Below, one piece after another: positions 30,256-41,783 of a DNA stretch of 64,000 bases. This stretch comes from Candidatus Stercoripulliclostridium merdipullorum (GTDB taxonomy: Bacteria; Bacillota; Clostridia; Christensenellales; DTU072). The stretch is taken from assembly GCA_018713745.1 (NCBI GenBank), contig DVOH01000057.1, positions 6,544-70,543 on the forward strand. The letters are read 5' to 3'. A program made the translations under genes and the position numbers. Numbering within the stretch: the stretch's first letter is position 1; the number at the start of each line of letters is the position of its first letter. Below the pieces are notes generated by a model. It was not told the DNA's origin. It did no database searches and saw nothing but the letters and a program-made list of their open reading frames with translations.

Positions 30256-30624
30256 TTAACGCTTGATTTTCAGATTTTCGGCGCCGGTCAGCATGATATC
30301 GTTGAATTTTTCGTTGATCAGCCGATAATAGATAATTTTTCCCGTGCGTCTGGTGTCGACCATGCCGGCGTCGCGTAACAGTTTCAGCTGATGCGATACC
30401 GTGGTCTGGTTGAGTTCCAAGAGCCCCGCAAGATCGCTGACGCAAAGTTCCGAGATGGCAAGCGCAGACAACATTTTGACGCGCGTAACGTCCGAAAACA
30501 GACTGAAAAAATTGCACATTTCACTGAGAATTTCGTTGGAAGGCAGATACGTTCTGATCAGCACTTCGACCTCATCCGACACAATTTTGTTGCACACGGC
30601 GTCCCTCGCGTTTTTTTTCATCAT
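30256..30624 (-). CDS. ArsR/SmtB-family metalloregulator
   Basis: Winged-helix block ELCVSDLAGLLELNQTTVSHQLKLLRDAGMV..RR.GK..YY.L. A CVS motif sits at the alpha-3 position. Confidence 0.85.
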   Translation of the reverse strand: MMKKNARDAVCNKIVSDEVEVLIRTYLPSNEILSEMCNFFSLFSDVTRVKMLSALAISELCVSDLAGLLELNQTTVSHQLKLLRDAGMVDTRRTGKIIYYRLINEKFNDIMLTGAENLKIKR

Positions 30625-31707: not shown

Positions 31708-32436
31708 ATGGAATTTGAAAAGACCGTATTAGAGCGGGTCAATTGGATCAAAGAAATTTTGGCAGAGGCCGGTGCAAAGGGCATTGTGCTCGGGATGAGC
31801 GGCGGCAAAGACAGCGCGCTGGTCGGCATTTTGTGCCGGATGGCAACGCCCAACGTGACGGGGATCATTATGCCTTGTCAATCGCGGCGCAATCTCGGCG
31901 AAGACCGCGATCACGCGTTGATACTCAACGAAAAATTCGATATTCAGACGTTGGAGGTCGATCTTACGCCCGTCAAAGAAGCGTTTGAAACGGTATTGCT
32001 TCCGTTGGACGCCAATCAGAATCCCATGGCATACGCCAACATCAACCCGCGTCTCAGAATGATCTGCCTTTACAACTATGCCCAGCGCCGCAATTATCTG
32101 GTCGCCGGAACGGGAAATCGCAGTGAGCTGACGATGGGTTATTTCACCAAATGGGGGGACGGCGCGTTCGATCTCAACCCGATTGCCGATCTGACGGTCA
32201 GCGAAGTGTACAAATTGCTGCGCTATCTCGATTGCCCCGAAGAAATTATCAAAAAACCGCCCTCAGCCGCATTGTATGACGGGCAGACCGACGAGGAAGA
32301 GATGGGGATCCGATATGCCGACCTCGATCGCTATATTTTGACCGGGGAAGCGACGCCCGAGGTCAAGGCAAAGGTTGACCGCGCCGAGTACCGTACCGAA
32401 CACAAGCGTTCGCTCGGCAGAATGTTTCCCCGCTGA
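31708..32436 (+). CDS. nadE: Ammonia-dependent NAD+ synthetase
   Basis: GMSGGKDSAL PP-loop and the GYFTKWGDG motif. Confidence 0.9.
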   Translation: MEFEKTVLERVNWIKEILAEAGAKGIVLGMSGGKDSALVGILCRMATPNVTGIIMPCQSRRNLGEDRDHALILNEKFDIQTLEVDLTPVKEAFETVLLPLDANQNPMAYANINPRLRMICLYNYAQRRNYLVAGTGNRSELTMGYFTKWGDGAFDLNPIADLTVSEVYKLLRYLDCPEEIIKKPPSAALYDGQTDEEEMGIRYADLDRYILTGEATPEVKAKVDRAEYRTEHKRSLGRMFPR

Positions 32437-32463: not shown

Positions 32464-32817
32464 ATGAAAATCAAAGAAGTTGTTTCCATTCTTGACGGAA
32501 AAGTCTGCTGTTGCGAAAACCTTCTGGACAACGAAGTGTTTTCCGCCTGTGCCTCCGATATGATGAGCGACGTACTTGCTTTTGTCAAAGATCAGTCGCT
32601 GCTGCTGTCGGGGCTTTGCAATCCGCAGGTGATCCGCACGGCAGATATGCTGGATATCCGCTGTGTCGCGCTGGTGCGCGGCAAGACGCCGAGTCCCGAT
32701 ATGATCGCGCTTGCAGAACAAAAGGGCATTGTGATTTTGTCGAGTAATCTCAGGATGTTTCTTGCATGCGGACTGCTGTATCAGGCGGGACTGCAGCCCG
32801 GAGAGGTCATTTTATGA
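32464..32817 (+). CDS. DRTGG-domain protein (copy 1)
   Basis: 117 aa. The layout (..ASDMMSDVL..., L.SGL.N.QVIRTA....I..V...RGK.P....I..A......VL) is typical of stand-alone DRTGG proteins found next to hydrogenase genes. Confidence 0.65.
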   Translation: MKIKEVVSILDGKVCCCENLLDNEVFSACASDMMSDVLAFVKDQSLLLSGLCNPQVIRTADMLDIRCVALVRGKTPSPDMIALAEQKGIVILSSNLRMFLACGLLYQAGLQPGEVIL

Positions 32818-33242
32818 CCGCCATTCATCAGGAATACGAAGTACTGGGCAACAATTTCGTATCGGCGGGCAGCGCGAGCGACGAGGTCAAAAAGACGCTG
32901 AAAATGTTGGGGATCGACCCGATGATCATTCGTCGCATCGCCATCGCGATGTACGAAGGCGAAATCAATATGGTGATTCACGCCGGAGGCGGCAGAGCGA
33001 TCGTTGACATCGATCCCGACAAAATCAAAGTGGTGCTCAAAGATCAGGGATCCGGGATCGCCGATATCGAACTTGCAATGAAGGACGGCTATTCCACCGC
33101 ACCCGACAACATCCGCTCGATGGGCTTCGGCGCGGGGATGGGTCTGCCGAATATGAAAAAATACACCGACCGCTTCCGCATCGAAAGCGAAGTCGGGGTC
33201 GGGACCGAAGTAACGCTGGAAGTCGATTTCAACGAAAAATAG
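32814..33242 (+). CDS. RsbW-like GHKL ATPase (anti-sigma-factor/Ser kinase-type)
   Basis: Start at MTAIHQEY with an ATGA overlap. Has the N box YEGEINMVIHA and G boxes DQGSGI and GFGAGMGLPN. No DHp or sensor domain. Confidence 0.7.
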   Translation: MTAIHQEYEVLGNNFVSAGSASDEVKKTLKMLGIDPMIIRRIAIAMYEGEINMVIHAGGGRAIVDIDPDKIKVVLKDQGSGIADIELAMKDGYSTAPDNIRSMGFGAGMGLPNMKKYTDRFRIESEVGVGTEVTLEVDFNEK

Positions 33243-33260
33243 GTTCCGCGAGAGGGCGTT

Positions 33261-34505
33261 ATGGATAAAAGTTTGCATACGGTTACGCTGGATTCCGAGA
33301 AGTGCAAAGGTTGCATCGCCTGTATGAAGCGGTGTCCGACCGAAGCAATCCGCGTGCGCGGCGGAAAGGCGAAAGTTTTGTACGATCGTTGCGTGGGATG
33401 CGGCGAATGTGTCAGAATTTGCCCCAACCAGGCAAAGCTGCCTTCTTACGATCCGTTTGAAATGATCGAGCGGTTCAAATACCGCGTGGCGGTGCCCGCG
33501 CCGTCTTTGTACGGGCAATTCAACAATCTGACCGACATCGATACCGTCCTTAACGGGCTGTTGGAGATCGGGTTTGACGACGTGTTCGAAGTATCGCGCG
33601 GCGCCGAACTGATCACCGAAGTCAGCCGTAAAGTCATTGCCGAAAACAAGATCAAACGACCCGTAATCAGTACGGCTTGCCCTGCGATTGTCGAGCTGAT
33701 CATGGTGCGCTATCACGACCTTGCCGATCATCTTTTGGATCTGCAGGCCCCCGTTGATATAGCCTTGCGCCTGGCGCGGGAGGAAGCGATACAAAAAGGG
33801 ATTCCGGCAGAGGATATCGGCGTGTTTTTTATTTCGCCTTGTCCCGCCAAGGTTTTTGCGTTAAAAACGGGGCTGGGGCTGAAAGCGCCTTCGGCAGACG
33901 GCGTCTTGTCGATCTCGGAAGTGTATTTTAAGTTGATTTCGGCGATGCCGAAACTCAAGTCGTTGCGTCCGCTGGCAAAGACCGGCATTATCGGACTGCA
34001 GTGGGCTTCCTCGGGCGGAGAAGCGGCAGGGTTGTTTATGGACAAGTATCTTGCCGCGGACGGCGTCGAAAACGCCATCGAGATTCTCAACGAAATCGAC
34101 AACGAAAAACTCAACTACATCGACTTTGTCGAGCTGAACGCCTGCGCCGGCGGTTGCGTGGGCGGGGTGCTGAATATCGAAAACCCGTTTGTCGCCAAAG
34201 CGCGGATCCGGAGTTTGCGCCGCAATCTGCAGCTTGCGCGCAACAACGTTGCCGAAACCGACAAGCCGCTCTCGTATTTCCGATGGGAAGTCGCGCCCGA
34301 AATCAAAGACGTTTACCGTCTGGACGAAGACCGAATGCTTGCACTCGAAAAGATGAAGGCAATCGACGCGATTACCAAAAGCCTTCCCAATCTCGATTGC
34401 GGAAGTTGCGGCGCCCCGAGTTGCAGGGCATTTGCCGAGGACGTGGTCAACGGCGAGATCGACAGAAAAGCCTGTGTAAGGGAGAATCATCCGTATGAAA
34501 CTTGA
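33261..34505 (+). CDS. HydS-like [FeFe]-hydrogenase homologue (two ferredoxin clusters + H-domain + C-terminal Cys4 motif)
   Basis: Two ferredoxin motifs (CKGCIACMKRCP and CVGCGECVRICP). H-cluster-like motifs ISTACPAIV, FISPCPAKV and ELNACAGGCVGG. C-terminal CGSCGAPSC-x16-C. Confidence 0.75.
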   Translation: MDKSLHTVTLDSEKCKGCIACMKRCPTEAIRVRGGKAKVLYDRCVGCGECVRICPNQAKLPSYDPFEMIERFKYRVAVPAPSLYGQFNNLTDIDTVLNGLLEIGFDDVFEVSRGAELITEVSRKVIAENKIKRPVISTACPAIVELIMVRYHDLADHLLDLQAPVDIALRLAREEAIQKGIPAEDIGVFFISPCPAKVFALKTGLGLKAPSADGVLSISEVYFKLISAMPKLKSLRPLAKTGIIGLQWASSGGEAAGLFMDKYLAADGVENAIEILNEIDNEKLNYIDFVELNACAGGCVGGVLNIENPFVAKARIRSLRRNLQLARNNVAETDKPLSYFRWEVAPEIKDVYRLDEDRMLALEKMKAIDAITKSLPNLDCGSCGAPSCRAFAEDVVNGEIDRKACVRENHPYET

Positions 34506-34812
34506 AGAACTGGTCAAAAGACTGGATGCCGAAGTCCTCAATGCCGCCGAGCCTCTCCGCGAAATCGAAGGGGGATACTGCGGCGATTTTCTGAGCTTTG
34601 TGATGAGCCGCGCGCCCGAAGGTTCGGCGTGGTTTACGGTGATGAGCAACGTCAACGTCATTGCCGTTGCGGTCCTTGCCGAAGTCGGCGCCGTCGTCTT
34701 GTGCGAAGGGGTCAGACCCGATCCCGCCATGCTCGAAAAGGCGCGGAGCGAAAACATAACGGTGATCGCGACCAAACTGCCGGCATTCGAAGCGGTACTG
34801 CGATACAATTAA
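34495..34812 (+). CDS. DRTGG-domain protein (copy 2)
   Basis: 105 aa, same domain layout as 32464-32817. Has an 11-nt overlap with the preceding gene. Confidence 0.65.
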   Translation: MKLEELVKRLDAEVLNAAEPLREIEGGYCGDFLSFVMSRAPEGSAWFTVMSNVNVIAVAVLAEVGAVVLCEGVRPDPAMLEKARSENITVIATKLPAFEAVLRYN

Positions 34813-34825
34813 GGAGCGGAGTGGT

Positions 34826-35521
34826 ATGAAATTCAATTACGATTTTCATATCCACAGCGCGTTGTCGCCTTGCGCCGACAACGATATGACGCCGATCAAC
34901 ATTGTCGCGGCGGCGAGTGCGGTCGGACTGGAGATGATTGCCGTTGCCGATCATAACGCCATCGCCAACGTCAAGGCGGCAATCGAAGTGGGCAAAATGC
35001 TCGACGTAACGGTCGTGCCCGCTATGGAATTGCAGACGGCGGAAGATATCCATATCCTGTGTCTGTTCCCGACCTACGAAAAGCTCGAAGCGTTTTACGA
35101 AAGTTTAGAGTTTCCCGCCATCGAAAACCGATCCGAAATTTTCGGACAGCAGCTGATTTATGACCTTGACAACGAGGTCTGCGGTTATGAGCCGCGCATG
35201 CTGCTCGCTTCGGCAACGGTTTCGGAATACGAAGTCGGAGAGCTTGCCGAACGCTTTGACGGGATCGCGGTGCCTGCTCATATCGACCGCGCTTCCAACG
35301 GAATTCTCGCCATCCTCGGATCGCTGCCCGAAGGGTATACGGCGGTCGAACTCAGCTATCGTTGTCCGCCCGACGCGGGCGCGCAGTTTCTTAAAGATTA
35401 CAACGTGATTTCCGACTCGGACGCACATTGTCTTGCCGATCTCGGCAAGCGTCGCTTTTTGATCGATCTTCCCGAGCGGAGCGCCGAGGCACTGATCGAA
35501 TATTTGCGCCACAAACGGTAG
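34826..35521 (+). CDS. PHP-domain phosphoesterase
   Basis: The N-terminal DFHIHSALSPCAD and ADHN motifs are characteristic of PHP (polymerase/histidinol phosphatase) metal sites. Confidence 0.8.
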   Translation: MKFNYDFHIHSALSPCADNDMTPINIVAAASAVGLEMIAVADHNAIANVKAAIEVGKMLDVTVVPAMELQTAEDIHILCLFPTYEKLEAFYESLEFPAIENRSEIFGQQLIYDLDNEVCGYEPRMLLASATVSEYEVGELAERFDGIAVPAHIDRASNGILAILGSLPEGYTAVELSYRCPPDAGAQFLKDYNVISDSDAHCLADLGKRRFLIDLPERSAEALIEYLRHKR

Positions 35522-35667
35522 CCTAAGCTACAGTTTTATTTTATTTTTGCACAAATTTGCTTCCCTGTCGGTATGAAACCGGTAAGCCTCCTTTTTCCGG
35601 TTGGCAAATTTTTTCAACGCCGAAAACTGAAAAATACGTTAAATTACTTTAATTTTATTATAGCTTA

Positions 35668-35676
35668 TGCTATAAT
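35668..35676 (+). promoter_or_regulatory. Extended -10 promoter element of the structural hydrogenase operon
   Basis: TGCTATAAT (TGnTATAAT) lies ~47 nt upstream of the hydC ATG in an AT-rich spacer. The -35 is weak (TTTAAT). Confidence 0.45.
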
Positions 35677-35722
35677 GTTTTGGACATCAACGCTTGACGC
35701 GTAACTTTTTTTGGAGGAACAA

Positions 35723-36223
35723 ATGGCAAAAATCAAGTTTTCCAACCTTCCTTTCGTTCCCAAAGCCGAACAAAAAGCCCAATTCGAGGCAAGGCTTGCA
35801 GAACTGAAAGGGGTGCCCGGTGCTCTGATGCCGGCTTTGCAAAGCGCACAAGAGATCTTCGGCTATCTGCCGATCGAAGTGCAAAAGCAAGTCGCCGATG
35901 CTCTCGACGTTTCGTTGGAAGAGGTATTCGGCGTTGCGACGTTCTACTCGCAGTTTACCCTCAACCCCCGCGGCGAATTTCAGGTTGCGGTCTGTCTCGG
36001 GACTGCCTGTTACGTCAAAGGCGCGGGCGATCTCGTTGCCGCAATCCGCAAAAATCTCAATATCGAAGAAGGTTCCGATTGTACCTCCGACGGCAAGTTT
36101 TCGTTGGTGGAAACCCGCTGTATCGGCTGTTGCGGACTCGCACCCGTTCTGACCGTCAACGGTAACGTTTACGGCAAACTTTCCACCGCCGATATCGACG
36201 GTATTCTCGCACAGTACAAGTAA
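35723..36223 (+). CDS. hydC: NuoE-like [2Fe-2S] subunit of NADH-dependent [FeFe] hydrogenase
   Basis: ATG follows GGAGG. Has the thioredoxin-like [2Fe-2S] Cys pattern C.GTAC...C(x3)C (CLGTACYVKG, CIGCCGLAP). Confidence 0.85.
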   Translation: MAKIKFSNLPFVPKAEQKAQFEARLAELKGVPGALMPALQSAQEIFGYLPIEVQKQVADALDVSLEEVFGVATFYSQFTLNPRGEFQVAVCLGTACYVKGAGDLVAAIRKNLNIEEGSDCTSDGKFSLVETRCIGCCGLAPVLTVNGNVYGKLSTADIDGILAQYK

Positions 36224-36226
36224 TTT

Positions 36227-36769
36227 ATGCAAGAACTTTCTCTCAACATCCTCGACATTGCTCAAAACTCCGTCAAAGCGGGCGCAACGCTCGTGCGGGT
36301 CGGGGTTACGGTCGAAGCCAACGCGCTGACGATCGAAATCGCCGACAACGGTTGCGGGATGAGCCCCGAGTTTTTGCAGCGCGTCACCGATCCTTTTACG
36401 ACGACGCGCACGACGCGCAAGGTCGGGCTGGGGATTCCGCTTTTTAAGCAGTCTGCAGAGATGACGGGAGGAAGTTTTTCGATTTCGTCCGAGCCCGGCG
36501 TCGGTACCGTCGTACGGGCAACGTTCGTGCTTGACAGCATCGACCGGATGCCGCTCGGCGATCTTGCCGATACCGTTTGCAGCCTTTTGTACGAACAAAT
36601 CGATTTTGTTTGGCATTATGCGGTGGACGGCAGATCGTTCGATTTCGACACGAGAGAGATCAAAGCCGAATTGGGCGGGATTCCCATCGACAGCGTTCAG
36701 GTTGTCGCTTTTCTCAAATCCATGGTAGAAGAAAACATCGAAAGCGTAAACGGAGGTAGAATTATATGA
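36227..36769 (+). CDS. Stand-alone GHKL (HATPase_c) ATPase embedded in the hydrogenase operon
   Basis: N box LNILDIAQNSVKAG, G1 DNGCGM and G2 GLGIPL..., with no DHp/His domain. Same position as the histidine-kinase-like ORF in the Thermoanaerobacter-type hydC-x-hydD-hydB-hydA operon. Confidence 0.7.
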   Translation: MQELSLNILDIAQNSVKAGATLVRVGVTVEANALTIEIADNGCGMSPEFLQRVTDPFTTTRTTRKVGLGIPLFKQSAEMTGGSFSISSEPGVGTVVRATFVLDSIDRMPLGDLADTVCSLLYEQIDFVWHYAVDGRSFDFDTREIKAELGGIPIDSVQVVAFLKSMVEENIESVNGGRII

Positions 36770-37134
36770 AGTCAATCGCCGATATCAAGGCAATCCGCGA
36801 CAAAATGCAATCGCAGGTATTCACCCGCGAAAAAACCGACGACAACATCACCCGTATCGTTGTCGGAATGGCGACTTGCGGCATCGCCGCGGGGGCGCGT
36901 CCCGTCTTTAACGAACTGGTCGAGCAGGTTGCCGCTCGCGGACTCCACAACGTCGTCGTCAGCCGTTCGGGCTGCCTCGGCATGTGCAAATTGGAACCCA
37001 TCGTCGAGGTTTTCGTCCCCGGCGAAGAAAAAGTTACGTACGTCAAAGTAGACGCCGAAAAAGCTAAAAAAATTATCGAAAAACACATTGTCGCCGGGAT
37101 GGTCTGCACCGACTATCTGGTGGGCGAAGAATAG
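36766..37134 (+). CDS. hydD: Small [2Fe-2S] ferredoxin-like hydrogenase subunit
   Basis: 122 aa, with Cys in MATCG and SGCLGMC. ATGA overlap with the preceding gene. Confidence 0.6.
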   Translation: MKSIADIKAIRDKMQSQVFTREKTDDNITRIVVGMATCGIAAGARPVFNELVEQVAARGLHNVVVSRSGCLGMCKLEPIVEVFVPGEEKVTYVKVDAEKAKKIIEKHIVAGMVCTDYLVGEE

Positions 37135-37146
37135 GAGGAGCGCATA

Positions 37147-38931
37147 ATGTTCAGAAGTCACGTTCTTGTCTGCGGCGGTACGGGGTGTCATTCCAACCAC
37201 AGCGACGAAATTTTTCAGCAATTCAACGCTCTGCTCAAAGCCCACGGGTTGGAGCAAGAGGTCATGGTCGTCAAAACGGGTTGCTTCGGTCTTTGCGCCG
37301 TCGGTCCCGTCGTTATCGTTTATCCCGAAGGTTCGTTCTACAGCGAAGTCAAGGCGAGCGACGTCGAAGAGATTGTCAAAGAACATCTGATCAAAGGTCG
37401 CGTCGTCAAACGGTTGCTTTATGTCGATCACAAGACGCAGGAAATGACCAAAGCCTTGACCGAAACCAACTTTTACAAAAAGCAAACCCGTGTTGCTTTG
37501 CGGAATTGCGGCGTCATCAATCCCGAAGTCATTGACGAATATATCGCGTTCGACGGGTATCAGGCATTGATCAAATGCTTGACCGAAATGGAACCGCAAG
37601 ACGTCATCGACGTCCTCAAAGCCAGCGGTCTGCGCGGTCGCGGCGGCGGCGGATTCCCCACCGGACTCAAATGGCAGTTTGCCAAGAATGCCGCAGGCGA
37701 CGTCAAATACGTCTGCTGTAACGCCGACGAAGGCGACCCCGGCGCATTTATGGACCGTTCGGTTCTCGAAGGCGACCCCCATGCCGTTCTCGAAGCAATG
37801 GCAATCGGCGGCTACGCAATCGGCGCTCATCAAGGTTACATCTATATCCGCGCCGAATATCCCATCGCGGTCGAACGTTGCCGCATTGCCATCAAGCAGG
37901 CGCGCGAGTACGGACTGCTCGGCAAAAACATTCTCGGTACGGGCTTCGATTTCGACATCGATATCCGCCTCGGCAGCGGCGCGTTTGTCTGCGGCGAAGA
38001 AACCGCTCTGATGACCTCCATCGAAGGAAAACGCGGCGAACCCCGTCCCCGTCCTCCTTTCCCCGCCAACAGCGGTCTGTTCCGTAAGCCCACCGTGCTG
38101 AACAACGTCGAAACGTACGCCAATATCCCCCAGATTATTCTGAAAGGCGCCGATTGGTTTGCTTCGATGGGGACCGAAAAGTCCAAAGGCACCAAAGTTT
38201 TTGCTCTGGGCGGCAAAATCGTCAACACCGGTCTGGTCGAAATTCCGATGGGTACGACGCTCCGTACCGTTGTCGAAGACATCGGCGGCGGCATCCCCAA
38301 CGGCAAAAAATTCAAAGCGGCGCAGACGGGCGGTCCTTCGGGCGGCTGCATTCCTGCCGAGCACTTCGACATTCCCATCGATTACGACAACCTGATTTCC
38401 ATCGGTTCGATGATGGGTTCGGGCGGCTTGATCGTCATGGACGAAGACAACTGTATGGTCGACATCGCCAAGTTCTTCCTTGAATTTACCCAGGACGAGT
38501 CTTGCGGCAAATGTACGCCCTGCCGTATCGGTACCAAACGCCTGCTCGAATATCTTGACAAGATCACCAAAGGCAACGCGACCCTCCAGGATCTCGACGA
38601 TATGGAAGCGCTTTGCTATTATATCAAAGACAACGCGCTTTGCGGTCTGGGACAGACTGCGCCCAACCCCGTGCTTTCGACGCTGCGTTACTTCCGCGAC
38701 GAATACGTTGCGCACATCGTCGACAAAAAATGTCCGGCAGGGGTCTGTAAGGCGTTGCTCCACTACAGCATTACCGACGCCTGTAAAGGTTGTACGCTCT
38801 GCGCCCGCAAATGTCCCGTCGGCGCAATCAGCGGTACGGTGCGCGAGAAGCACGTCATCGACAACAGCAAATGTATTAAGTGCGGCGTTTGTATGGACAA
38901 CTGTAAGTTCAACGCCATCGTAAGAAAATAA
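37147..38931 (+). CDS. hydB: NuoF-like NADH/FMN-binding subunit of [FeFe] hydrogenase
   Basis: N-terminal [2Fe-2S] thioredoxin-like part, GRGGGGFPTGLKW, the SLBB/4Fe-4S motif ESCGKCTPCR and two C-terminal ferredoxin motifs. Confidence 0.9.
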   Translation: MFRSHVLVCGGTGCHSNHSDEIFQQFNALLKAHGLEQEVMVVKTGCFGLCAVGPVVIVYPEGSFYSEVKASDVEEIVKEHLIKGRVVKRLLYVDHKTQEMTKALTETNFYKKQTRVALRNCGVINPEVIDEYIAFDGYQALIKCLTEMEPQDVIDVLKASGLRGRGGGGFPTGLKWQFAKNAAGDVKYVCCNADEGDPGAFMDRSVLEGDPHAVLEAMAIGGYAIGAHQGYIYIRAEYPIAVERCRIAIKQAREYGLLGKNILGTGFDFDIDIRLGSGAFVCGEETALMTSIEGKRGEPRPRPPFPANSGLFRKPTVLNNVETYANIPQIILKGADWFASMGTEKSKGTKVFALGGKIVNTGLVEIPMGTTLRTVVEDIGGGIPNGKKFKAAQTGGPSGGCIPAEHFDIPIDYDNLISIGSMMGSGGLIVMDEDNCMVDIAKFFLEFTQDESCGKCTPCRIGTKRLLEYLDKITKGNATLQDLDDMEALCYYIKDNALCGLGQTAPNPVLSTLRYFRDEYVAHIVDKKCPAGVCKALLHYSITDACKGCTLCARKCPVGAISGTVREKHVIDNSKCIKCGVCMDNCKFNAIVRK

Positions 38932-38945
38932 GGAGGAACCGTAAG

Positions 38946-40691
38946 ATGGAACAAAAAATGATCAATCTCAAAATCAACGGGATCGCCGTAACGGTTCCCG
39001 AAGGCACGACGATTCTCGATGCCGCCCGCAGCGTTAACATCAAAATTCCGACGCTGTGCTATCTGCGCGACATCAACGCGATCGGCGCCTGCCGTGTCTG
39101 CGTCGTCGAAGTCAAAGGCGCGCGCAGCTTGGTGGCGTCCTGCGTCTATCCCGTCAGCGAAGGGATGGAGGTGACGACCAACAGTAAACGCGTACTGGAC
39201 AGCCGCCGCACGACGGTCGAGCTGATTCTGTCCGATCACGACAAAAACTGTCTGTCCTGTGTCCGCAATCAAAACTGCGAACTGCAAACGCTTTCCAACG
39301 AACTCGGCTGCAATGCCCAGAAGTTCAAAGGCGCGGTCAACGAATTCGATCTCGATCTCAGCACGCCGTATCTGATCCGTGACAACAACAAGTGCGTCTT
39401 GTGCCGCCGTTGCGTGGCAGCATGCGCTCAATATCAAGGGATTGCCGTCATCGGTCCCAATGCCCGCGGATTCAAAACGCACATCGGTTGCGCGTTTGAA
39501 AAAGACCTGATGGAGACGCCTTGCGTCGGTTGCGGTCAATGTATCACCGTATGCCCGACGGGCGCCCTCCGCGAACGGGAAGAAATCGACGACGTCATCG
39601 CCGCCCTTGCCGACAAATCCAAACATGTCATCGCCGCGACCGCACCTTCCGTGCGCGTCGGGCTGGGGGAAGAATTCGGAATGCCCATGGGTACCAACGT
39701 CGAAGGCAAGATGGTCACCGCGCTTCGTATGATGGGCTTTGACGACGTCTTTGACGTAGACTTTACGGCAGACCTCACGATCATGGAAGAAGGATACGAG
39801 TTTGTCAACCGTCTCAACAACGGCGGCGTTCTGCCGATGATGACCAGCTGTTCGCCGGCATGGATCAAGTTTGTCGAACATAACTATCCCGAAATGATCC
39901 CCAATCTTTCGAGCTGCAAGTCGCCGCAACAAATGTTCGGCGCCATTGCCAAAACGTATTATGCCGAAAAGAAAGGGATCGACCCCAAGAATATCGTCGT
40001 CGTTTCGATTATGCCCTGTACCGCCAAAAAGTTCGAAAAAGGCCGTTCCTTCCAAAGCGCGGCGGGCGTACCCGACATCGACATCGCATTGACGACCAGA
40101 GAGCTTGCCCGTATGATCAAGCGGCAAGGCATTGCGTTCAGCGAGCTGGAAGACAGCGCGTTTGACGCCCCCCTCGGGATCGGCAGCGGCGCAGGTCTGA
40201 TTTTCGGTGCGACGGGCGGCGTTATGGAAGCGGCGCTCCGTACGTTGGCGGACGTCCTGGAAGGCAAATCCCTCGATAAGATCGATTATACCGCCGTACG
40301 CGGCACCGAAGGGATCAAAGAAGCGTCTGTCACGCTCGCCGGCAAAACCGTCAAAGTTGCGGTTGCAAGCGGACTTGCCAATGCGCGCAAGCTGATGGAA
40401 AAGATCAATAAAGGGGAAGCCGATTATCACTTCATCGAGATCATGAGCTGTCCGGGCGGTTGCGTCAACGGCGGCGGTCAGCCCATCAAAGACGCTTATA
40501 CGCGCAACAATTACGATATCAAAGCGATCCGCGCCAAAGCGATCTACGATACCGACAAAGCGATGGGACTGCGCAAGTCGCACGATAACCCCGTCATCAA
40601 AGAGCTTTACGAAACCTATCTCGGAGCTCCCAACAGCCACAAAGCGCACGAAATTTTGCATACAAAATACGAAAAGCGCAACAATTACTAA
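38946..40691 (+). CDS. hydA: [FeFe] hydrogenase catalytic subunit
   Basis: N-terminal 2Fe-2S plus His-ligated and 2x[4Fe-4S] domains. H-cluster motifs are TSCSPAW (L1 variant), MPCTAKKFE (L2) and EIMSCPGGCVNGGGQP (L3). Confidence 0.9.
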   Translation: MEQKMINLKINGIAVTVPEGTTILDAARSVNIKIPTLCYLRDINAIGACRVCVVEVKGARSLVASCVYPVSEGMEVTTNSKRVLDSRRTTVELILSDHDKNCLSCVRNQNCELQTLSNELGCNAQKFKGAVNEFDLDLSTPYLIRDNNKCVLCRRCVAACAQYQGIAVIGPNARGFKTHIGCAFEKDLMETPCVGCGQCITVCPTGALREREEIDDVIAALADKSKHVIAATAPSVRVGLGEEFGMPMGTNVEGKMVTALRMMGFDDVFDVDFTADLTIMEEGYEFVNRLNNGGVLPMMTSCSPAWIKFVEHNYPEMIPNLSSCKSPQQMFGAIAKTYYAEKKGIDPKNIVVVSIMPCTAKKFEKGRSFQSAAGVPDIDIALTTRELARMIKRQGIAFSELEDSAFDAPLGIGSGAGLIFGATGGVMEAALRTLADVLEGKSLDKIDYTAVRGTEGIKEASVTLAGKTVKVAVASGLANARKLMEKINKGEADYHFIEIMSCPGGCVNGGGQPIKDAYTRNNYDIKAIRAKAIYDTDKAMGLRKSHDNPVIKELYETYLGAPNSHKAHEILHTKYEKRNNY

Positions 40692-40748: not shown

Positions 40749-41783
40749 ATGGCAAATAACAGACACAGACACAAAAAAAGATTTTCGCCGGCAGACACAT
40801 ACGTTCCGCCGTATGACGCGATGCTTCTTGCCGAGTCGGTCGATACGTTGACCCTGACGGATGAGGTGCGCGAAAAACTCCGCAAGGGCAATATCAACAC
40901 GTTGTTGGACATCGCGAAGCGGGAGACAAAAGACTTTTACCGTATCCCGACGTTCAACAAAAAAAATCTGTTTGAGCTCAAAAAAGCGGCGGAAGCAAAA
41001 GGCATCGGACTTAAACCCGATACGCCCCGTCCCGAGCCCAACGTACAGCCGCAAGCCGACGCCGAGAACGCCCGGCAGAAAGAAGCATCGGCAAAGCAGG
41101 AGCGTTCGGACAAAAAACTTGAAAAAGGGGATCGGAAAAAGGACAACAGGAATCCCGAAGTCCGCAAAGACGGTAGGGCAAGCGATCGCAATTCCGAGTC
41201 CCGCAAGGAGACTGCCAAGTCGTCCGACCGCAGTGTAGACGAACGCAGACATCAAAAAGAAAAAGACCGCTCCAGAGAGCGTGTAGATATCCGCAACAAA
41301 AAAGGCAACCGCGAAGAGCCGCTCAGCGAACAGAAGATGAAAGAAGAGCGGCGCAAAAAGCGTCCGGTCCGCGTTGCGCCCCCGCCCATACACGATATTT
41401 ATATTAAGATCAATAAGAACGGAAAGTGGGGGTTTGCCGATCGTAGCGGCAAAGAAGTGATTGCCCCGATTTATGACGAAGTATTTATGTTCAAAGAGGA
41501 CGTCTGCTGCTTCGAACGCGACGAACTGTTCGGCTATATCGACCGTCAGGGCAACGAAATCATAGCACCCGTTTATGAGTGTGCGGCAAGTTTCAGCGAA
41601 GGCTATGCCTGCGTCTTTAAAGGCGGCGTCTGCGGCTATATCGACAAAGAGGGCAATGCCGTGATCGATTTTCAGTACGACGCGGGTACGCCCGTGATCG
41701 ACGGGAACTGCCGCGTCAAAAAGAACGGAAAGTGGGGAGAGCTGTATATCGACCGCCCCAACGAAGTACGGTGGATCATCTGA
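40749..41783 (+). CDS. RpoA-CTD-like helix-hairpin-helix + basic disordered region + WG-repeat protein
   Basis: The N-terminus LTLTDEVREKLRKGNINTLLDIAKRETKDFYRIPTFNKKNLFELKKAAEAKGI matches the alpha-CTD HhH pattern. A ~120-aa K/R/E/D-rich stretch follows. The C-terminus has repeated KNGKWGF.D..G. and GYID..G modules (WG repeats). Confidence 0.65.
   Translation: MANNRHRHKKRFSPADTYVPPYDAMLLAESVDTLTLTDEVREKLRKGNINTLLDIAKRETKDFYRIPTFNKKNLFELKKAAEAKGIGLKPDTPRPEPNVQPQADAENARQKEASAKQERSDKKLEKGDRKKDNRNPEVRKDGRASDRNSESRKETAKSSDRSVDERRHQKEKDRSRERVDIRNKKGNREEPLSEQKMKEERRKKRPVRVAPPPIHDIYIKINKNGKWGFADRSGKEVIAPIYDEVFMFKEDVCCFERDELFGYIDRQGNEIIAPVYECAASFSEGYACVFKGGVCGYIDKEGNAVIDFQYDAGTPVIDGNCRVKKNGKWGELYIDRPNEVRWII

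Follow-up and report, generated by a model that had tools for sequence, protein, structure and literature searches.

In Candidatus Stercoripulliclostridium merdipullorum, five genes at positions 32464 to 35521 of the 64,000-nt window (the whole stretch of DNA analysed) form a conserved module around HydS, a putative sensory [FeFe] hydrogenase of group D (M2e), directly upstream of the operon for a bifurcating-type hydrogenase. The locus typifies a known system whose mechanism is still to be solved. Tentatively, and at somewhat below an even chance, we read the module as an ATP-dependent switch that responds to H2 or redox state. It would be similar to partner switching, though made of non-canonical parts, and would most likely control HydABC post-translationally.

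All five genes lie on the forward strand. DRTGG1 (32464-32817, 117 aa) is a stand-alone DRTGG-fold protein whose gene is translationally coupled to that of GHKL1 (32814-33242, 142 aa counted from the ATG within the ATGA overlap), a GHKL ATPase of the SpoIIAB/RsbW type and putative Ser kinase. HydS (33261-34505, 414 aa) is followed by DRTGG2 (34495-34812, 105 aa), a DRTGG1 paralogue overlapping the HydS stop, and by a metal-dependent phosphoesterase of the PHP family (34826-35521, 231 aa). DRTGG1 and GHKL1 overlap by 4 nt (ATGA), 18 nt separate GHKL1 from HydS, HydS and DRTGG2 share 11 nt, and 13 nt lie between DRTGG2 and PHP. The earlier note on this DNA had described five tightly packed co-directional genes with these domains and no recognisable output domain. 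The ORF positions reproduced every coordinate and junction, and Pfam HMM matches bore out the assignment of each protein. At E<=0.01, Pfam returned no DNA-binding, receiver, HisKA, PAS, PP2C or STAS match among the five, in agreement with the note.

We compared 160 loci in two independent sets, one from species genomes and one of metagenome loci. All five genes, in unchanged order, are present in 72 of the 74 species genomes and 51 of the 60 metagenome loci that could be evaluated, and the module is kept as a unit in about 140 other bacteria. We give practically no credence to the idea that unrelated genes came together by chance: it is refuted by the conserved order and close coupling of the genes in over 120 independent loci, at HydS identities of 50-76%, and by reverse look-ups from DRTGG1, which retrieved the same gene context. 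Co-conservation with hydrogenase operons, on which the earlier note depended, was also found: hydABC adjoins the module in 56/64 informative genome loci and 35/42 informative metagenome loci (about 85%). About 15% of loci lack hydABC within 7-10 kb, so the module is able to work in trans. The module lies between hydC and GHKL2-hydD-hydB-hydA, with hydC 5' of DRTGG1, in 17 genome loci (roughly one in four of that sample), and in one MAG all ten genes overlap or abut. No co-conserved gene for a sigma factor or a helix-turn-helix, receiver, STAS, PAS or PP2C protein was found in the 160 loci, and no further conserved neighbour family was seen around them. In three metagenome loci the DRTGG and PHP genes are replaced, beside GHKL1-HydS, by those of a classical histidine kinase and an OmpR-type regulator, which leaves room for a transcriptional route.

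HydS contains two Fer4 domains, Fe_hyd_lg_C and the PF04060 FeS domain, without PAS, and is 49% identical (E 4e-144) to TamHydS, a biochemically studied, sensor-like enzyme with an H2 output of only about 0.07-0.09 umol H2/min/mg (PMC8163306). The sensor-like active-site changes reported earlier are there: A139 occupies the position of CpI C299 and S192 that of M353, and the C-terminal motif Cx2Cx4Cx16C is formed by C380-x2-C383-x4-C388-x16-C405. E254 and E291 are equivalent to the alternative proton-path glutamates E252 and E289 of TamHydS. All group D sequence hallmarks tested are present, and on these features we assign HydS to the putative sensors of that group. The signature residues and the likeness to the low-activity TamHydS speak against an ordinary second catalytic hydrogenase.

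HydS might still be a slow working hydrogenase or electron-entry module, with the four small proteins as assembly, protection or repair factors for HydS or HydABC, for example after O2 damage, and no signalling at all. HydS retains all H-cluster cysteines, the F-cluster relay and the alternative proton path; TamHydS catalyses in both directions and has a distinct state that arises from O2 (PMC8163306); and the gene arrangement of the 17 loci above would co-transcribe the module with the structural genes. We nevertheless hold this account to be improbable. A SpoIIAB-type ATPase and a phosphoesterase typify signalling and not known maturation (HydE/F/G), and the solved HydABC complexes that match HydA have no such subunits among their PDB chain names. 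Prototypical hydrogenases are, moreover, several orders of magnitude more active than TamHydS.

GHKL1 matches HATPase_c / HATPase_c_2 in Pfam. A profile search of the PDB returned SpoIIAB (E 1.3e-11) and RsbW (1.6e-4), and Foldseek aligned its AF2 model to SpoIIAB across the full length (TM 0.81). Residues E48, N52, D77xGxG81, R101 and G104-G110 are invariant across loci; E48, N52 and R101 align with SpoIIAB E46, N50 and R105, and the G1 and G2 boxes are intact. Databases name the protein 'anti-sigma regulatory factor'. The gene was placed directly 5' of HydS by script in 145 of 147 loci and seen there in the gene listing of the remaining two. GHKL1, encoded immediately upstream in essentially all loci, is probably the direct partner of HydS.

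A 201-nt spacer (35522-35722, forward strand) separates PHP from hydC. As the earlier note had it, the spacer holds its own TGnTATAAT element, the extended -10 TGCTATAAT at 35668-35676 (forward strand), a candidate hydC promoter element. The motif TGnTAnAAT occurs 40-140 nt 5' of hydC in 45/65 loci compared with 4% of random 250-nt windows, and the hydC promoter is, by its sequence, a housekeeping extended -10 of the sigma-A type. Many module promoters also carry housekeeping-type extended -10 elements. A hairpin with a T-run at 35518-35548 (forward strand) is weak, with a z-score of only -1.5. The spacer matched no Rfam family, and no Rex box was found in it. Some hydC promoters carry palindromes specific to their clade, which hint at unlinked DNA-binding regulators.

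The order hydC-GHKL-hydD-hydB-hydA downstream of the module was reproduced at 35723-40691, all on the forward strand. HydC (35723-36223) is a NuoE-like [2Fe-2S] subunit (PF01257, 157 bits). GHKL2 (36227-36769, 180 aa) has a histidine kinase catalytic (CA) domain without DHp/His, followed by some 75 aa that form an uncharacterised C-terminal domain; it scores 64.7 bits to HATPase_c, and its top PDB matches are histidine kinase CA domains (KinB, 3e-14). HydD (36766-37134) is a small thioredoxin-like subunit of ferredoxin type, matching NCBIfam 2Fe-2S ferredoxin models and, weakly, PF01257. HydB (37147-38931) is a NuoF-like FMN/NADH subunit with Complex1_51K, NADH_4Fe-4S and Fer4 domains, scoring 499.7 bits to TIGR01959, under the 558.65-bit cut-off. 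HydA (38946-40691) is the catalytic [FeFe] hydrogenase of the bifurcating type (NF040763, 906 bits; cut-off 765), with E 9e-217 to HydA1 of a structurally solved electron-bifurcating HydABC complex. GHKL2 lies between hydC and hydD, or just before hydD in hydC-first loci, in nearly all hydABC-linked loci (it is missing from locus L109), and its median gap to hydD is 3 nt.

Alternatively, GHKL1 could be a classical anti-sigma or anti-regulator protein that holds a sigma or transcription factor whose gene lies elsewhere. HydS and DRTGG1/2 would time the release of this factor, which would then control hydABC and other fermentation genes. SpoIIAB and RsbW are its closest matches in sequence and fold, the database label agrees, and adhE transcript levels shift on sensor deletion in group C systems (PMC5707799). 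The modules unlinked to hydABC, the three loci with a kinase and an OmpR-type regulator, and the palindromes at hydC promoters also fit. This account, which we consider unlikely, has against it the absence of any co-conserved sigma or HTH gene from the 160 loci, the housekeeping-type elements at hydC and many module promoters, the transcription of the module from within the structural operon in 17 loci, and the presence of HydS in the gene position of the sigma factor. The missing sigma or HTH gene and the sigma-A-type hydC promoter count for a non-transcriptional output.

Both DRTGG proteins match PF07085, DRTGG2 with 30.9 bits and DRTGG1 with 24.8 bits (E 2e-5), slightly below the 25.2 cut-off. 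The AF2 model of DRTGG1 (pLDDT 91) matched 2IOJ in Foldseek with a TM of 0.82, then the DRTGG domain of CBS-PPase and the N-domain of HPrK. No STAS protein was among the Foldseek matches, and we take the fold to be a true DRTGG fold and not STAS. Comparison of DRTGG2 with DRTGG1 by hhalign gave a probability of 99.1% (E 1e-18), as expected for paralogues. D32, S35, N53, Q55, R58, R72 and K74 are invariant in DRTGG1, and D31 and S34 of DRTGG2, also invariant, are the counterparts of D32 and S35 (Asp-x-x-Ser). Asp32/Ser35 are conserved to at least 97% over both paralogues and both locus samples. In the model, strand 27-30 is followed by helix 34-40, and Ser35 stands at the beginning of this helix, at the helix 2 N-cap. 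AF_1212 has Gln at this position, so Ser35 is not a generic DRTGG residue. DRTGG1 was found in about 97% of loci, and its gene overlaps that of GHKL1 (median gap 4 nt); this order mirrors that of antagonist and kinase and counts for the partner-switching-like reading.

The PHP enzyme matches PF02811 (PHP) and PF13263 (PHP_C) and keeps all metal ligands, with H8, H10, D42, H43, E68, H76, H152, D199 and H201 invariant. Among solved structures it is closest to EndoQ (1e-9) and to PHPs of the pAp-phosphatase and RNase AM types, with no match to protein phosphatases of the CpsB/YwqE type. The TrlF N-domain is also among its nearest relatives.

These relatives bear on a metabolite or nucleotide device, in which the DRTGG ligand would be a small phosphorylated compound (adenine nucleotide, NAD(H) or dinucleotide), PHP would hydrolyse a nucleotide or oligonucleotide signal, and the GHKL proteins would be ATP-dependent clamps and not kinases, integrating energy or redox charge with H2. 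The conserved Asp, Ser, Asn, Gln, Arg and Lys residues of DRTGG1 lie in loops after strands 27-30, 46-49 and 67-70 and in helix 54-62, positions that in alpha/beta folds frequently belong to a ligand site and may do so here, and their placement would fit a binding site for a small molecule (phosphate or nucleotide) equally well. DRTGG domains occur in nucleotide-regulated enzymes, for example CBS pyrophosphatases. The N-terminal region of phosphotransacetylase is a further example. We rate this device as quite unlikely, a little below the anti-sigma account and above the slow hydrogenase: GHKL1 retains the residues aligned with SpoIIAB E46, N50 and R105, no second-messenger cyclase or synthetase is co-conserved in the sampled loci, and the ligands of CBS pyrophosphatases bind the CBS domains, not DRTGG.

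In the partner-switching-like switch that we favour, H2 status would be relayed from the H-cluster and F-clusters of HydS to GHKL1. GHKL1 would bind and/or phosphorylate DRTGG1 at its invariant Ser35, and perhaps also DRTGG2 at the equivalent Ser34, in each case beside the invariant Asp, and the PHP enzyme would reset the switch. The output would most likely be post-translational control of HydABC, directly or via GHKL2/HydD, with no dedicated sigma or DNA-binding protein. The pairing of GHKL1 and DRTGG as kinase and substrate is suggested by gene order and the conserved Ser, DRTGG being non-STAS. We counted against the switch that the nearest solved relatives of PHP act on nucleic acids or nucleotides and not on proteins; that the C-terminal cluster of TamHydS is unresponsive to H2 (PMC13104023), which blurs the signalling step inside HydS; and both the loci without hydABC and the three with the histidine kinase and OmpR-type regulator.

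Like SpoIIAA-SpoIIAB-sigmaF and RsbV-RsbW-sigmaB (phosphatases SpoIIE / RsbU / RsbX), the module combines a SpoIIAB fold and its aligned residues with a small alpha/beta protein that has an invariant Ser at a helix N-cap and an overlapping stop/start just 5' of GHKL1, and with a phosphoesterase gene downstream. However, DRTGG is not a STAS antagonist, the third component is a hydrogenase and not a sigma factor, PHP is not PP2C, and the kinase role of GHKL1 is putative. HoxBC-HoxJ-HoxA of Cupriavidus necator ([NiFe]) likewise pairs a low-activity hydrogenase as H2 sensor with a GHKL-family kinase controlling hydrogenase genes (PMC5707799), but its metal site is unrelated, and HoxJ, a full PAS histidine kinase, and HoxA, a DNA-binding response regulator, have no counterparts here. 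Mitochondrial PDK/BCKDK, which turned up when GHKL1 and GHKL2 were compared by fold and sequence, offer an analogy only, for a post-translational output: GHKL-family protein Ser kinases acting on one large redox complex (2-oxoacid dehydrogenase) and reversed by a dedicated phosphatase.

In group C (M2f) systems (Thermotoga maritima HydS, Ruminococcus albus HydS, Thermoanaerobacterium hfsABCD), too, genes for a catalytic hydrogenase and for Ser/Thr phospho-signalling adjoin that of a sensor-type [FeFe] hydrogenase whose C-terminus carries a 4-Cys cluster, and genetics backs a regulatory role of the sensor (PMC5707799). These systems have a PAS domain fused to HydS and a PP2C-type phosphatase, HfsC; the locus here lacks both and instead encodes the SpoIIAB-type ATPase, the DRTGG pair and the PHP enzyme. 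Nothing essential separates it from the group D loci (TamHydS of Thermoanaerobacter mathranii, Cthe_0335, Csac_1857, TTE0887, Cphy_3798), which have in common with it the domain order without PAS, the active-site substitutions, the alternative proton-path glutamates and the sensor upstream of a bifurcating hydrogenase; it is a member of the mesophile type from Clostridia. By their published locus tags, the sensor lies 5-7 genes away from the hydrogenase genes listed with it (PMC3561251), a spacing that fits HydS, DRTGG2, PHP, HydC, GHKL2, HydD, HydB and HydA.

That the group D sensor is encoded upstream of bifurcating hydrogenases and beside 'kinases' was published by 2012 at the latest (PMC3561251, citing a 2010 survey). 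In the searchable literature just 18 papers mention DRTGG, none of them in a hydrogenase-sensor context, and we found no description of the DRTGG and PHP partners or of the logic of the module. This agrees with the earlier note, which took these partners and the route to an output to be unsolved, and with a 2026 paper that still calls for identifying the interaction partners of TamHydS (PMC13104023). The module described here supplies candidates for the signalling partners of group D HydS.

The module comprises five genes on the + strand: DRTGG1 (32464-32817), GHKL1 (32814-33242), which starts in an ATGA overlap with DRTGG1, HydS (33261-34505; 414 aa) after an 18-nt gap, DRTGG2 (34495-34812), which overlaps HydS by 11 nt, and PHP (34826-35521) after a 13-nt gap. 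A 201-nt spacer, holding TGCTATAAT at 35668-35676, separates PHP from the downstream operon, whose order is hydC, a second GHKL gene (GHKL2), hydD, hydB, hydA. An earlier note had described the five ORFs, how they join and the operon that follows; all of this was borne out, as were its domain assignments: Pfam and NCBIfam back each one in the module and the operon. No DNA-binding, receiver, HisKA, PAS, PP2C or STAS domain was matched in the five proteins (Pfam, E<=0.01), in agreement with the same note. Upstream, an NAD synthase gene (31708-32436) ends 27 nt before DRTGG1, a gap too small for a module promoter. In the closest relative this gene lies instead between PHP and hydC (L001:5368-6093).

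The five genes were followed in two samples of loci. The genome sample, one genome per species, consisted of the best 80 of at least 564 relatives (50-74% HydS identity) from Christensenellales and Oscillospirales, mostly gut MAGs, and was examined with HMMs derived from the window's own proteins. The five genes occur together in 72 of the 74 genome loci with enough flanking sequence, and the two exceptions (L058, L064) lack both DRTGG2 and PHP. The median gap is 4 nt for DRTGG1-GHKL1 and 2 nt for each of HydS-DRTGG2 and DRTGG2-PHP. The second, independent sample contained 80 metagenome loci centred on TamHydS, the characterised group D (M2e) HydS of Thermoanaerobacter mathranii, at 51-76% identity to it. 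There, 51 of 60 evaluable loci have all five genes, and hydABC adjoins in 35 of 42 informative ones, so the co-occurrence with hydABC that the note had put up for checking is seen in both samples. Look-ups starting from DRTGG1 homologues gave the same gene context with independently called genes, and in one MAG all ten genes overlap or abut. With the same gene set recovered at 72/74 and 51/60, the probability that the five genes lie side by side by chance is close to nil.

The window-type layout was found in 35 of 64 judgeable genome loci, with a spacer of 93-936 nt before hydC. hydC is placed ahead of DRTGG1 in 17/64, which puts the module inside the structural operon, and the module and the hyd operon are divergent in 4/64. 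In the remaining 8/64, hydAB is absent within 8-10 kb and the flanks are housekeeping genes. By script, 145 of 147 loci have GHKL1 directly 5' of HydS, and the gene listing shows it there in the other two as well. Together with the presence counts, this adjacency gives an order of conservation in which the GHKL1-HydS pair is invariant, followed by DRTGG1, then DRTGG2, then PHP. Among metagenome loci, L109 lacks both PHP and GHKL2, L110, L163 and L164 lack only PHP, and L162 and L165 have a PHP orthologue some 4.5 kb upstream. For named thermophiles, gene order was judged from the locus-tag spacing in PMC3561251, in which the M2e gene lies 5-7 genes from the listed hydrogenase genes in Caldicellulosiruptor, Caldanaerobacter, Thermoanaerobacter, C. 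thermocellum and C. phytofermentans. This spacing fits the gene order of the module.

All-against-all clustering of the flanking ORFs of the 80 genome loci revealed no further conserved neighbour, neither a sigma factor nor an HTH gene. The clusters obtained reflect lineage-specific synteny (serA/serC-like in about 20 loci, nadE in about 7), and by Pfam the genes flanking the module are housekeeping genes. In the window, an ArsR-family regulator (30256-30624, - strand) is encoded 1.8 kb upstream, in the opposite orientation, and a WG-repeat protein (40749-41783, + strand) directly downstream of hydA; the gene families of both recur in at most a few of the 80 genome loci. Gene fusions were also sought. 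The 660 DRTGG1 clusters at E<=1e-10 among 1.84 billion representatives held no Rosetta-stone fusion: nearly all are stand-alone proteins of about 115-125 aa, and the few long matches are chimeras with ArgJ, peptidase M3 or SPOR. No fusion of GHKL1 or HydS was present among the top 120 homologues. A reading of the PHP and GHKL genes as anti-phage defence was set aside, since PADLOC gave no match of note.

Group D (M2e) [FeFe] hydrogenases are defined by two N-terminal [4Fe-4S] motifs, the H-domain and a C-terminal Cx2Cx4Cx16C motif, without PAS (PMC8163306). HydS has two Fer4 domains, Fe_hyd_lg_C and PF04060, gives no PAS match in Pfam, and carries the C-terminal motif as C380, C383, C388 and C405, which is the group D architecture. 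The proton-relay Cys299 (numbering of the reference enzyme CpI) is replaced by Ala139, and Ser192 occupies the position of Met353. Thus HydS reads ISTA139C140P and FFIS192PC194 where group A/B enzymes have TSCCP and MPC, and the TamHydS counterparts in the alignment are ISSACP and FFISPC. HydS E254 and E291 align with TamHydS E252 and E289, which have been named as alternative proton-path residues (PMC10407848), and are invariant in 81 sequences. Overall HydS is 49% identical to TamHydS over 404 aa (E 4e-144); for these comparisons the TamHydS protein was reconstructed from the coding sequence given in the PMC13104023 supplement, and frameshifts due to OCR were corrected by homology. Group C (M2f) identity was rejected, because the protein stops 9 residues after C405 and has no PAS match. 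A PDB search found no solved structure of a group C or D [FeFe] hydrogenase. Judged by its sequence, HydS is a group D (M2e) [FeFe] hydrogenase in every feature tested. Low turnover, CO tolerance and a sensor-like response to H2 are on record for TamHydS only (PMC8163306, PMC13104023). The note had called HydS sensor-like and had weighed this against its being simply a second catalytic hydrogenase; the group D hallmarks and the identity to TamHydS make the latter unlikely.

GHKL1 had been described as an RsbW-like GHKL ATPase, and both profiles and fold agree. PDB profiles matched SpoIIAB (E 1.3e-11) and RsbW (1.6e-4), and the AF2 model (pLDDT 91) superposes over its full length on SpoIIAB with TM 0.81 (Foldseek, 1TIL/1L0O). 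The N, G1 and G2 boxes are intact; E48, N52, D77xGxG, R101 and GFGAGMG are invariant, and E48/N52/R101 align to SpoIIAB E46/N50/R105. The score of 56 bits is below the NCBIfam equivalog cut-off of 135 bits, so GHKL1 is a relative and not an orthologue. The cognate STAS antagonist is absent: the gene 5' of GHKL1 encodes a DRTGG fold, and none of the five proteins gave a STAS match. Neither a sigma factor nor a PP2C phosphatase accompanies the module as a conserved gene family in the 80 genome loci. The module therefore differs from partner switching of the SpoIIAB/RsbW kind in three defining components, and may work in a similar way without belonging to that family.

A minority variant occurs in metagenome loci L115, L123 and L142 (e.g. 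L123:59-4785), where GHKL1-HydS is found without DRTGG1, DRTGG2 and PHP. The pair directly follows a classical sensor histidine kinase (dCache-HAMP-GAF/PAS-HisKA-HATPase_c), after which L123 and L142 have an OmpR-type response regulator; Sir2 in L142 and CheW in L115 are extra neighbours. This is the sole context seen with a DNA-binding protein beside a group D HydS. These three loci, with GHKL1-HydS after a histidine kinase and, in two of them, an OmpR-type regulator, speak for an unlinked sigma or transcription factor as the target of the module, but no sigma factor or HTH gene is conserved around the module itself, and we consider such a target unlikely.

DRTGG1 and DRTGG2 are paralogues (hhalign probability 99.1%). 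Against PF07085, DRTGG2 scored 30.9 bits and DRTGG1 24.8 bits, just under the 25.2-bit cut-off. The name-giving GDR...TGG motif is absent in DRTGG1, which has G50-L-C-N53 and R72-G-K74 where AF_1212, a DRTGG-fold protein of solved structure (2IOJ), has GGDR and LTGN. The AF2 model of DRTGG1 (pLDDT 91.3) matched AF_1212 with TM 0.82 and rmsd 1.9 A, followed by the DRTGG domain of a CBS-pyrophosphatase (3L2B) and then the HPr-kinase N-domain. A hidden STAS or receiver domain was rejected by Foldseek; the 50 best matches listed include no STAS. An Asp-x-x-Ser is common to both paralogues (D32/S35 in DRTGG1, D31/S34 in DRTGG2) and is at least 97% invariant in both samples. In the DRTGG1 model the loop after strand 27-30 carries the Asp, and helix 34-40 begins with the Ser. 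AF_1212 carries Gln at the Ser position, so the invariant Ser is not a generic residue of the fold. The further DRTGG1 invariants N53, Q55, R58, R72 and K74 are in or near the loops after strands 46-49 and 67-70. In databases the module proteins are named 'DRTGG domain-containing', 'predicted transcriptional regulator' (JGI), 'anti-sigma regulatory factor', 'PHP domain-containing' and 'ATP-binding protein'. A transcriptional regulator has been reported adjacent to TamHydS (PMC8163306), and the JGI name probably explains it.

PHP scored 27.9 bits against PF02811 (cut-off 26.4) and contains the HxH, DH, E, H, H and DxH ligands; the nine metal ligands H8, H10, D42, H43, E68, H76, H152, D199 and H201 are invariant in both samples. 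Its nearest relatives are nuclease/nucleotidase-type PHPs, namely EndoQ (1e-9), the pAp-phosphatase and RNase AM types and the TrlF N-domain. No similarity to the CpsB/YwqE protein phosphatases was found in Pfam or PDB profile searches at E<=0.01. This kinship, nuclease/nucleotidase-type and not CpsB/YwqE, would suit a nucleotide or metabolite device in which PHP acts as a nucleotide phosphodiesterase, a reading we hold to be quite improbable. That the module serves in assembly or repair has very little probability.

The bifurcating-type hydrogenase operon that the note placed downstream is upheld by HydA, which scored 906 bits against the NADH-dependent group A6 model NF040763 (curated cut-off 765) and matched HydA1 of a solved electron-bifurcating HydABC complex at E 9e-217. 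HydB and HydC gave strong NuoF and NuoE matches under the curated cut-offs (TIGR01959, 499.7 vs 558.65; NuoE, 125 vs 141 bits). With an A3/A6-type HydA, a NuoF-like HydB and a NuoE-like HydC, the operon is of the electron-bifurcating HydABC type, and bifurcation is predicted. HydA residues 300-306 (window 39840-39860) read TSCSPAW, compared with TSCCPxW of CpI-type enzymes, with Ser303 at the position of the cluster-ligand Cys300; TSCSPGW is present in HydA1 of a solved bifurcating HydABC complex (7q4v) and is the majority form among 56 HydA homologues. In HydD (window 36766-37134) only C38, C70, C74 and H107 are invariant across 63 homologues, and this set of just three Cys and one His suggests unusual ligands for its presumed [2Fe-2S] cluster. 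GHKL2 (window 36227-36769), encoded between hydC and hydD, is a histidine-kinase catalytic domain (CA matches at residues 8-101) with a further uncharacterised domain of about 75 aa at the C-terminus; Pfam and PDB profiles gave no match to DHp/HisKA with a phospho-acceptor His. Its gene and hydD remain together in almost every locus linked to hydABC.

The extended -10 element TGnTAnAAT was found 40-140 nt ahead of hydC in 45 of 65 loci and ahead of DRTGG1 in 25 of 56, compared with 4% of random windows, so the promoters of hydC and the module are housekeeping-type in appearance. A Rex operator was not matched at the hyd promoter; the sole match in the window (57259, 3 mismatches) is at chance level. 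Nothing meaningful was found in the search for riboswitches and known RNA elements in the spacer or operon. A terminator after PHP was rejected (weak hairpin, z = -1.5), terminator-like sites not being enriched. Roughly one locus in four of the genome sample has the module transcribed from inside the structural operon. Clade-specific palindromes occur by the hydC extended -10 (L028, L032, L037, L052, L068; and L002-L008), as ATAATTC-N6-GAATTAT upstream of the element and GC-rich CGCGCAT(A)TGCGCG just downstream, and are candidate operators for regulators encoded elsewhere; nothing comparable was noticed in the spacer of the window itself. Taken together, the lack of a co-conserved regulator, the housekeeping-type promoters, the lack of a Rex or RNA element and the in-operon modules lead us to favour an output at the protein level on HydABC, perhaps through GHKL2/HydD. 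Here PDK and BCKDK, GHKL kinases seated on dehydrogenase complexes, offer an analogy. The module probably does not act through a dedicated sigma or transcription factor.

We infer the interactions among the module proteins, phosphorylation and its target as follows. H2 would be sensed by HydS and relayed to GHKL1, GHKL1 would bind the DRTGG proteins or phosphorylate them at the invariant Ser, PHP would reset the switch, and the state of the switch would control the neighbouring bifurcating hydrogenase. As a whole this chain is possible, at somewhat less than an even chance. It is rather doubtful that the module represents a new type of partner-switching or phospho-relay circuit, with a DRTGG pair for STAS antagonists, PHP for PP2C and a hydrogenase at the position of the sigma factor, giving H2-responsive protein-level control of a flavin-based electron-bifurcating enzyme. 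If true, this would, as far as we know, give stand-alone DRTGG proteins their first assigned function and be the first described case of a bifurcating hydrogenase under post-translational control.

The locus is a typical group D sensory-hydrogenase cluster, and such clusters, beside 'kinases' upstream of bifurcating hydrogenases, have been published (PMC3561251, PMC8163306). The searchable literature, in which DRTGG itself occurs in just 18 papers, yielded no description of a DRTGG pair or a PHP gene in the context of a group D HydS, and the 2026 TamHydS paper states that interaction partners are still to be identified (PMC13104023); both agree with the note's claim that the DRTGG and PHP partners and the logic of the module had not been worked out. 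In guts, digesters and biofuel strains, bifurcating [FeFe] hydrogenases set how fermenting Clostridia balance H2, ethanol and acetate. The group D sensor is itself under detailed chemical study. The comparative data give ranked candidates for partners of HydS, with GHKL1 first because it invariably adjoins HydS, then DRTGG1, then DRTGG2 and PHP; on the enzyme side GHKL2 and HydD are candidates. They also single out one residue pair, the Asp/Ser of the DRTGG proteins, as a target for mutation. The acknowledged question of the signalling partners of HydS can thus now be tested directly.
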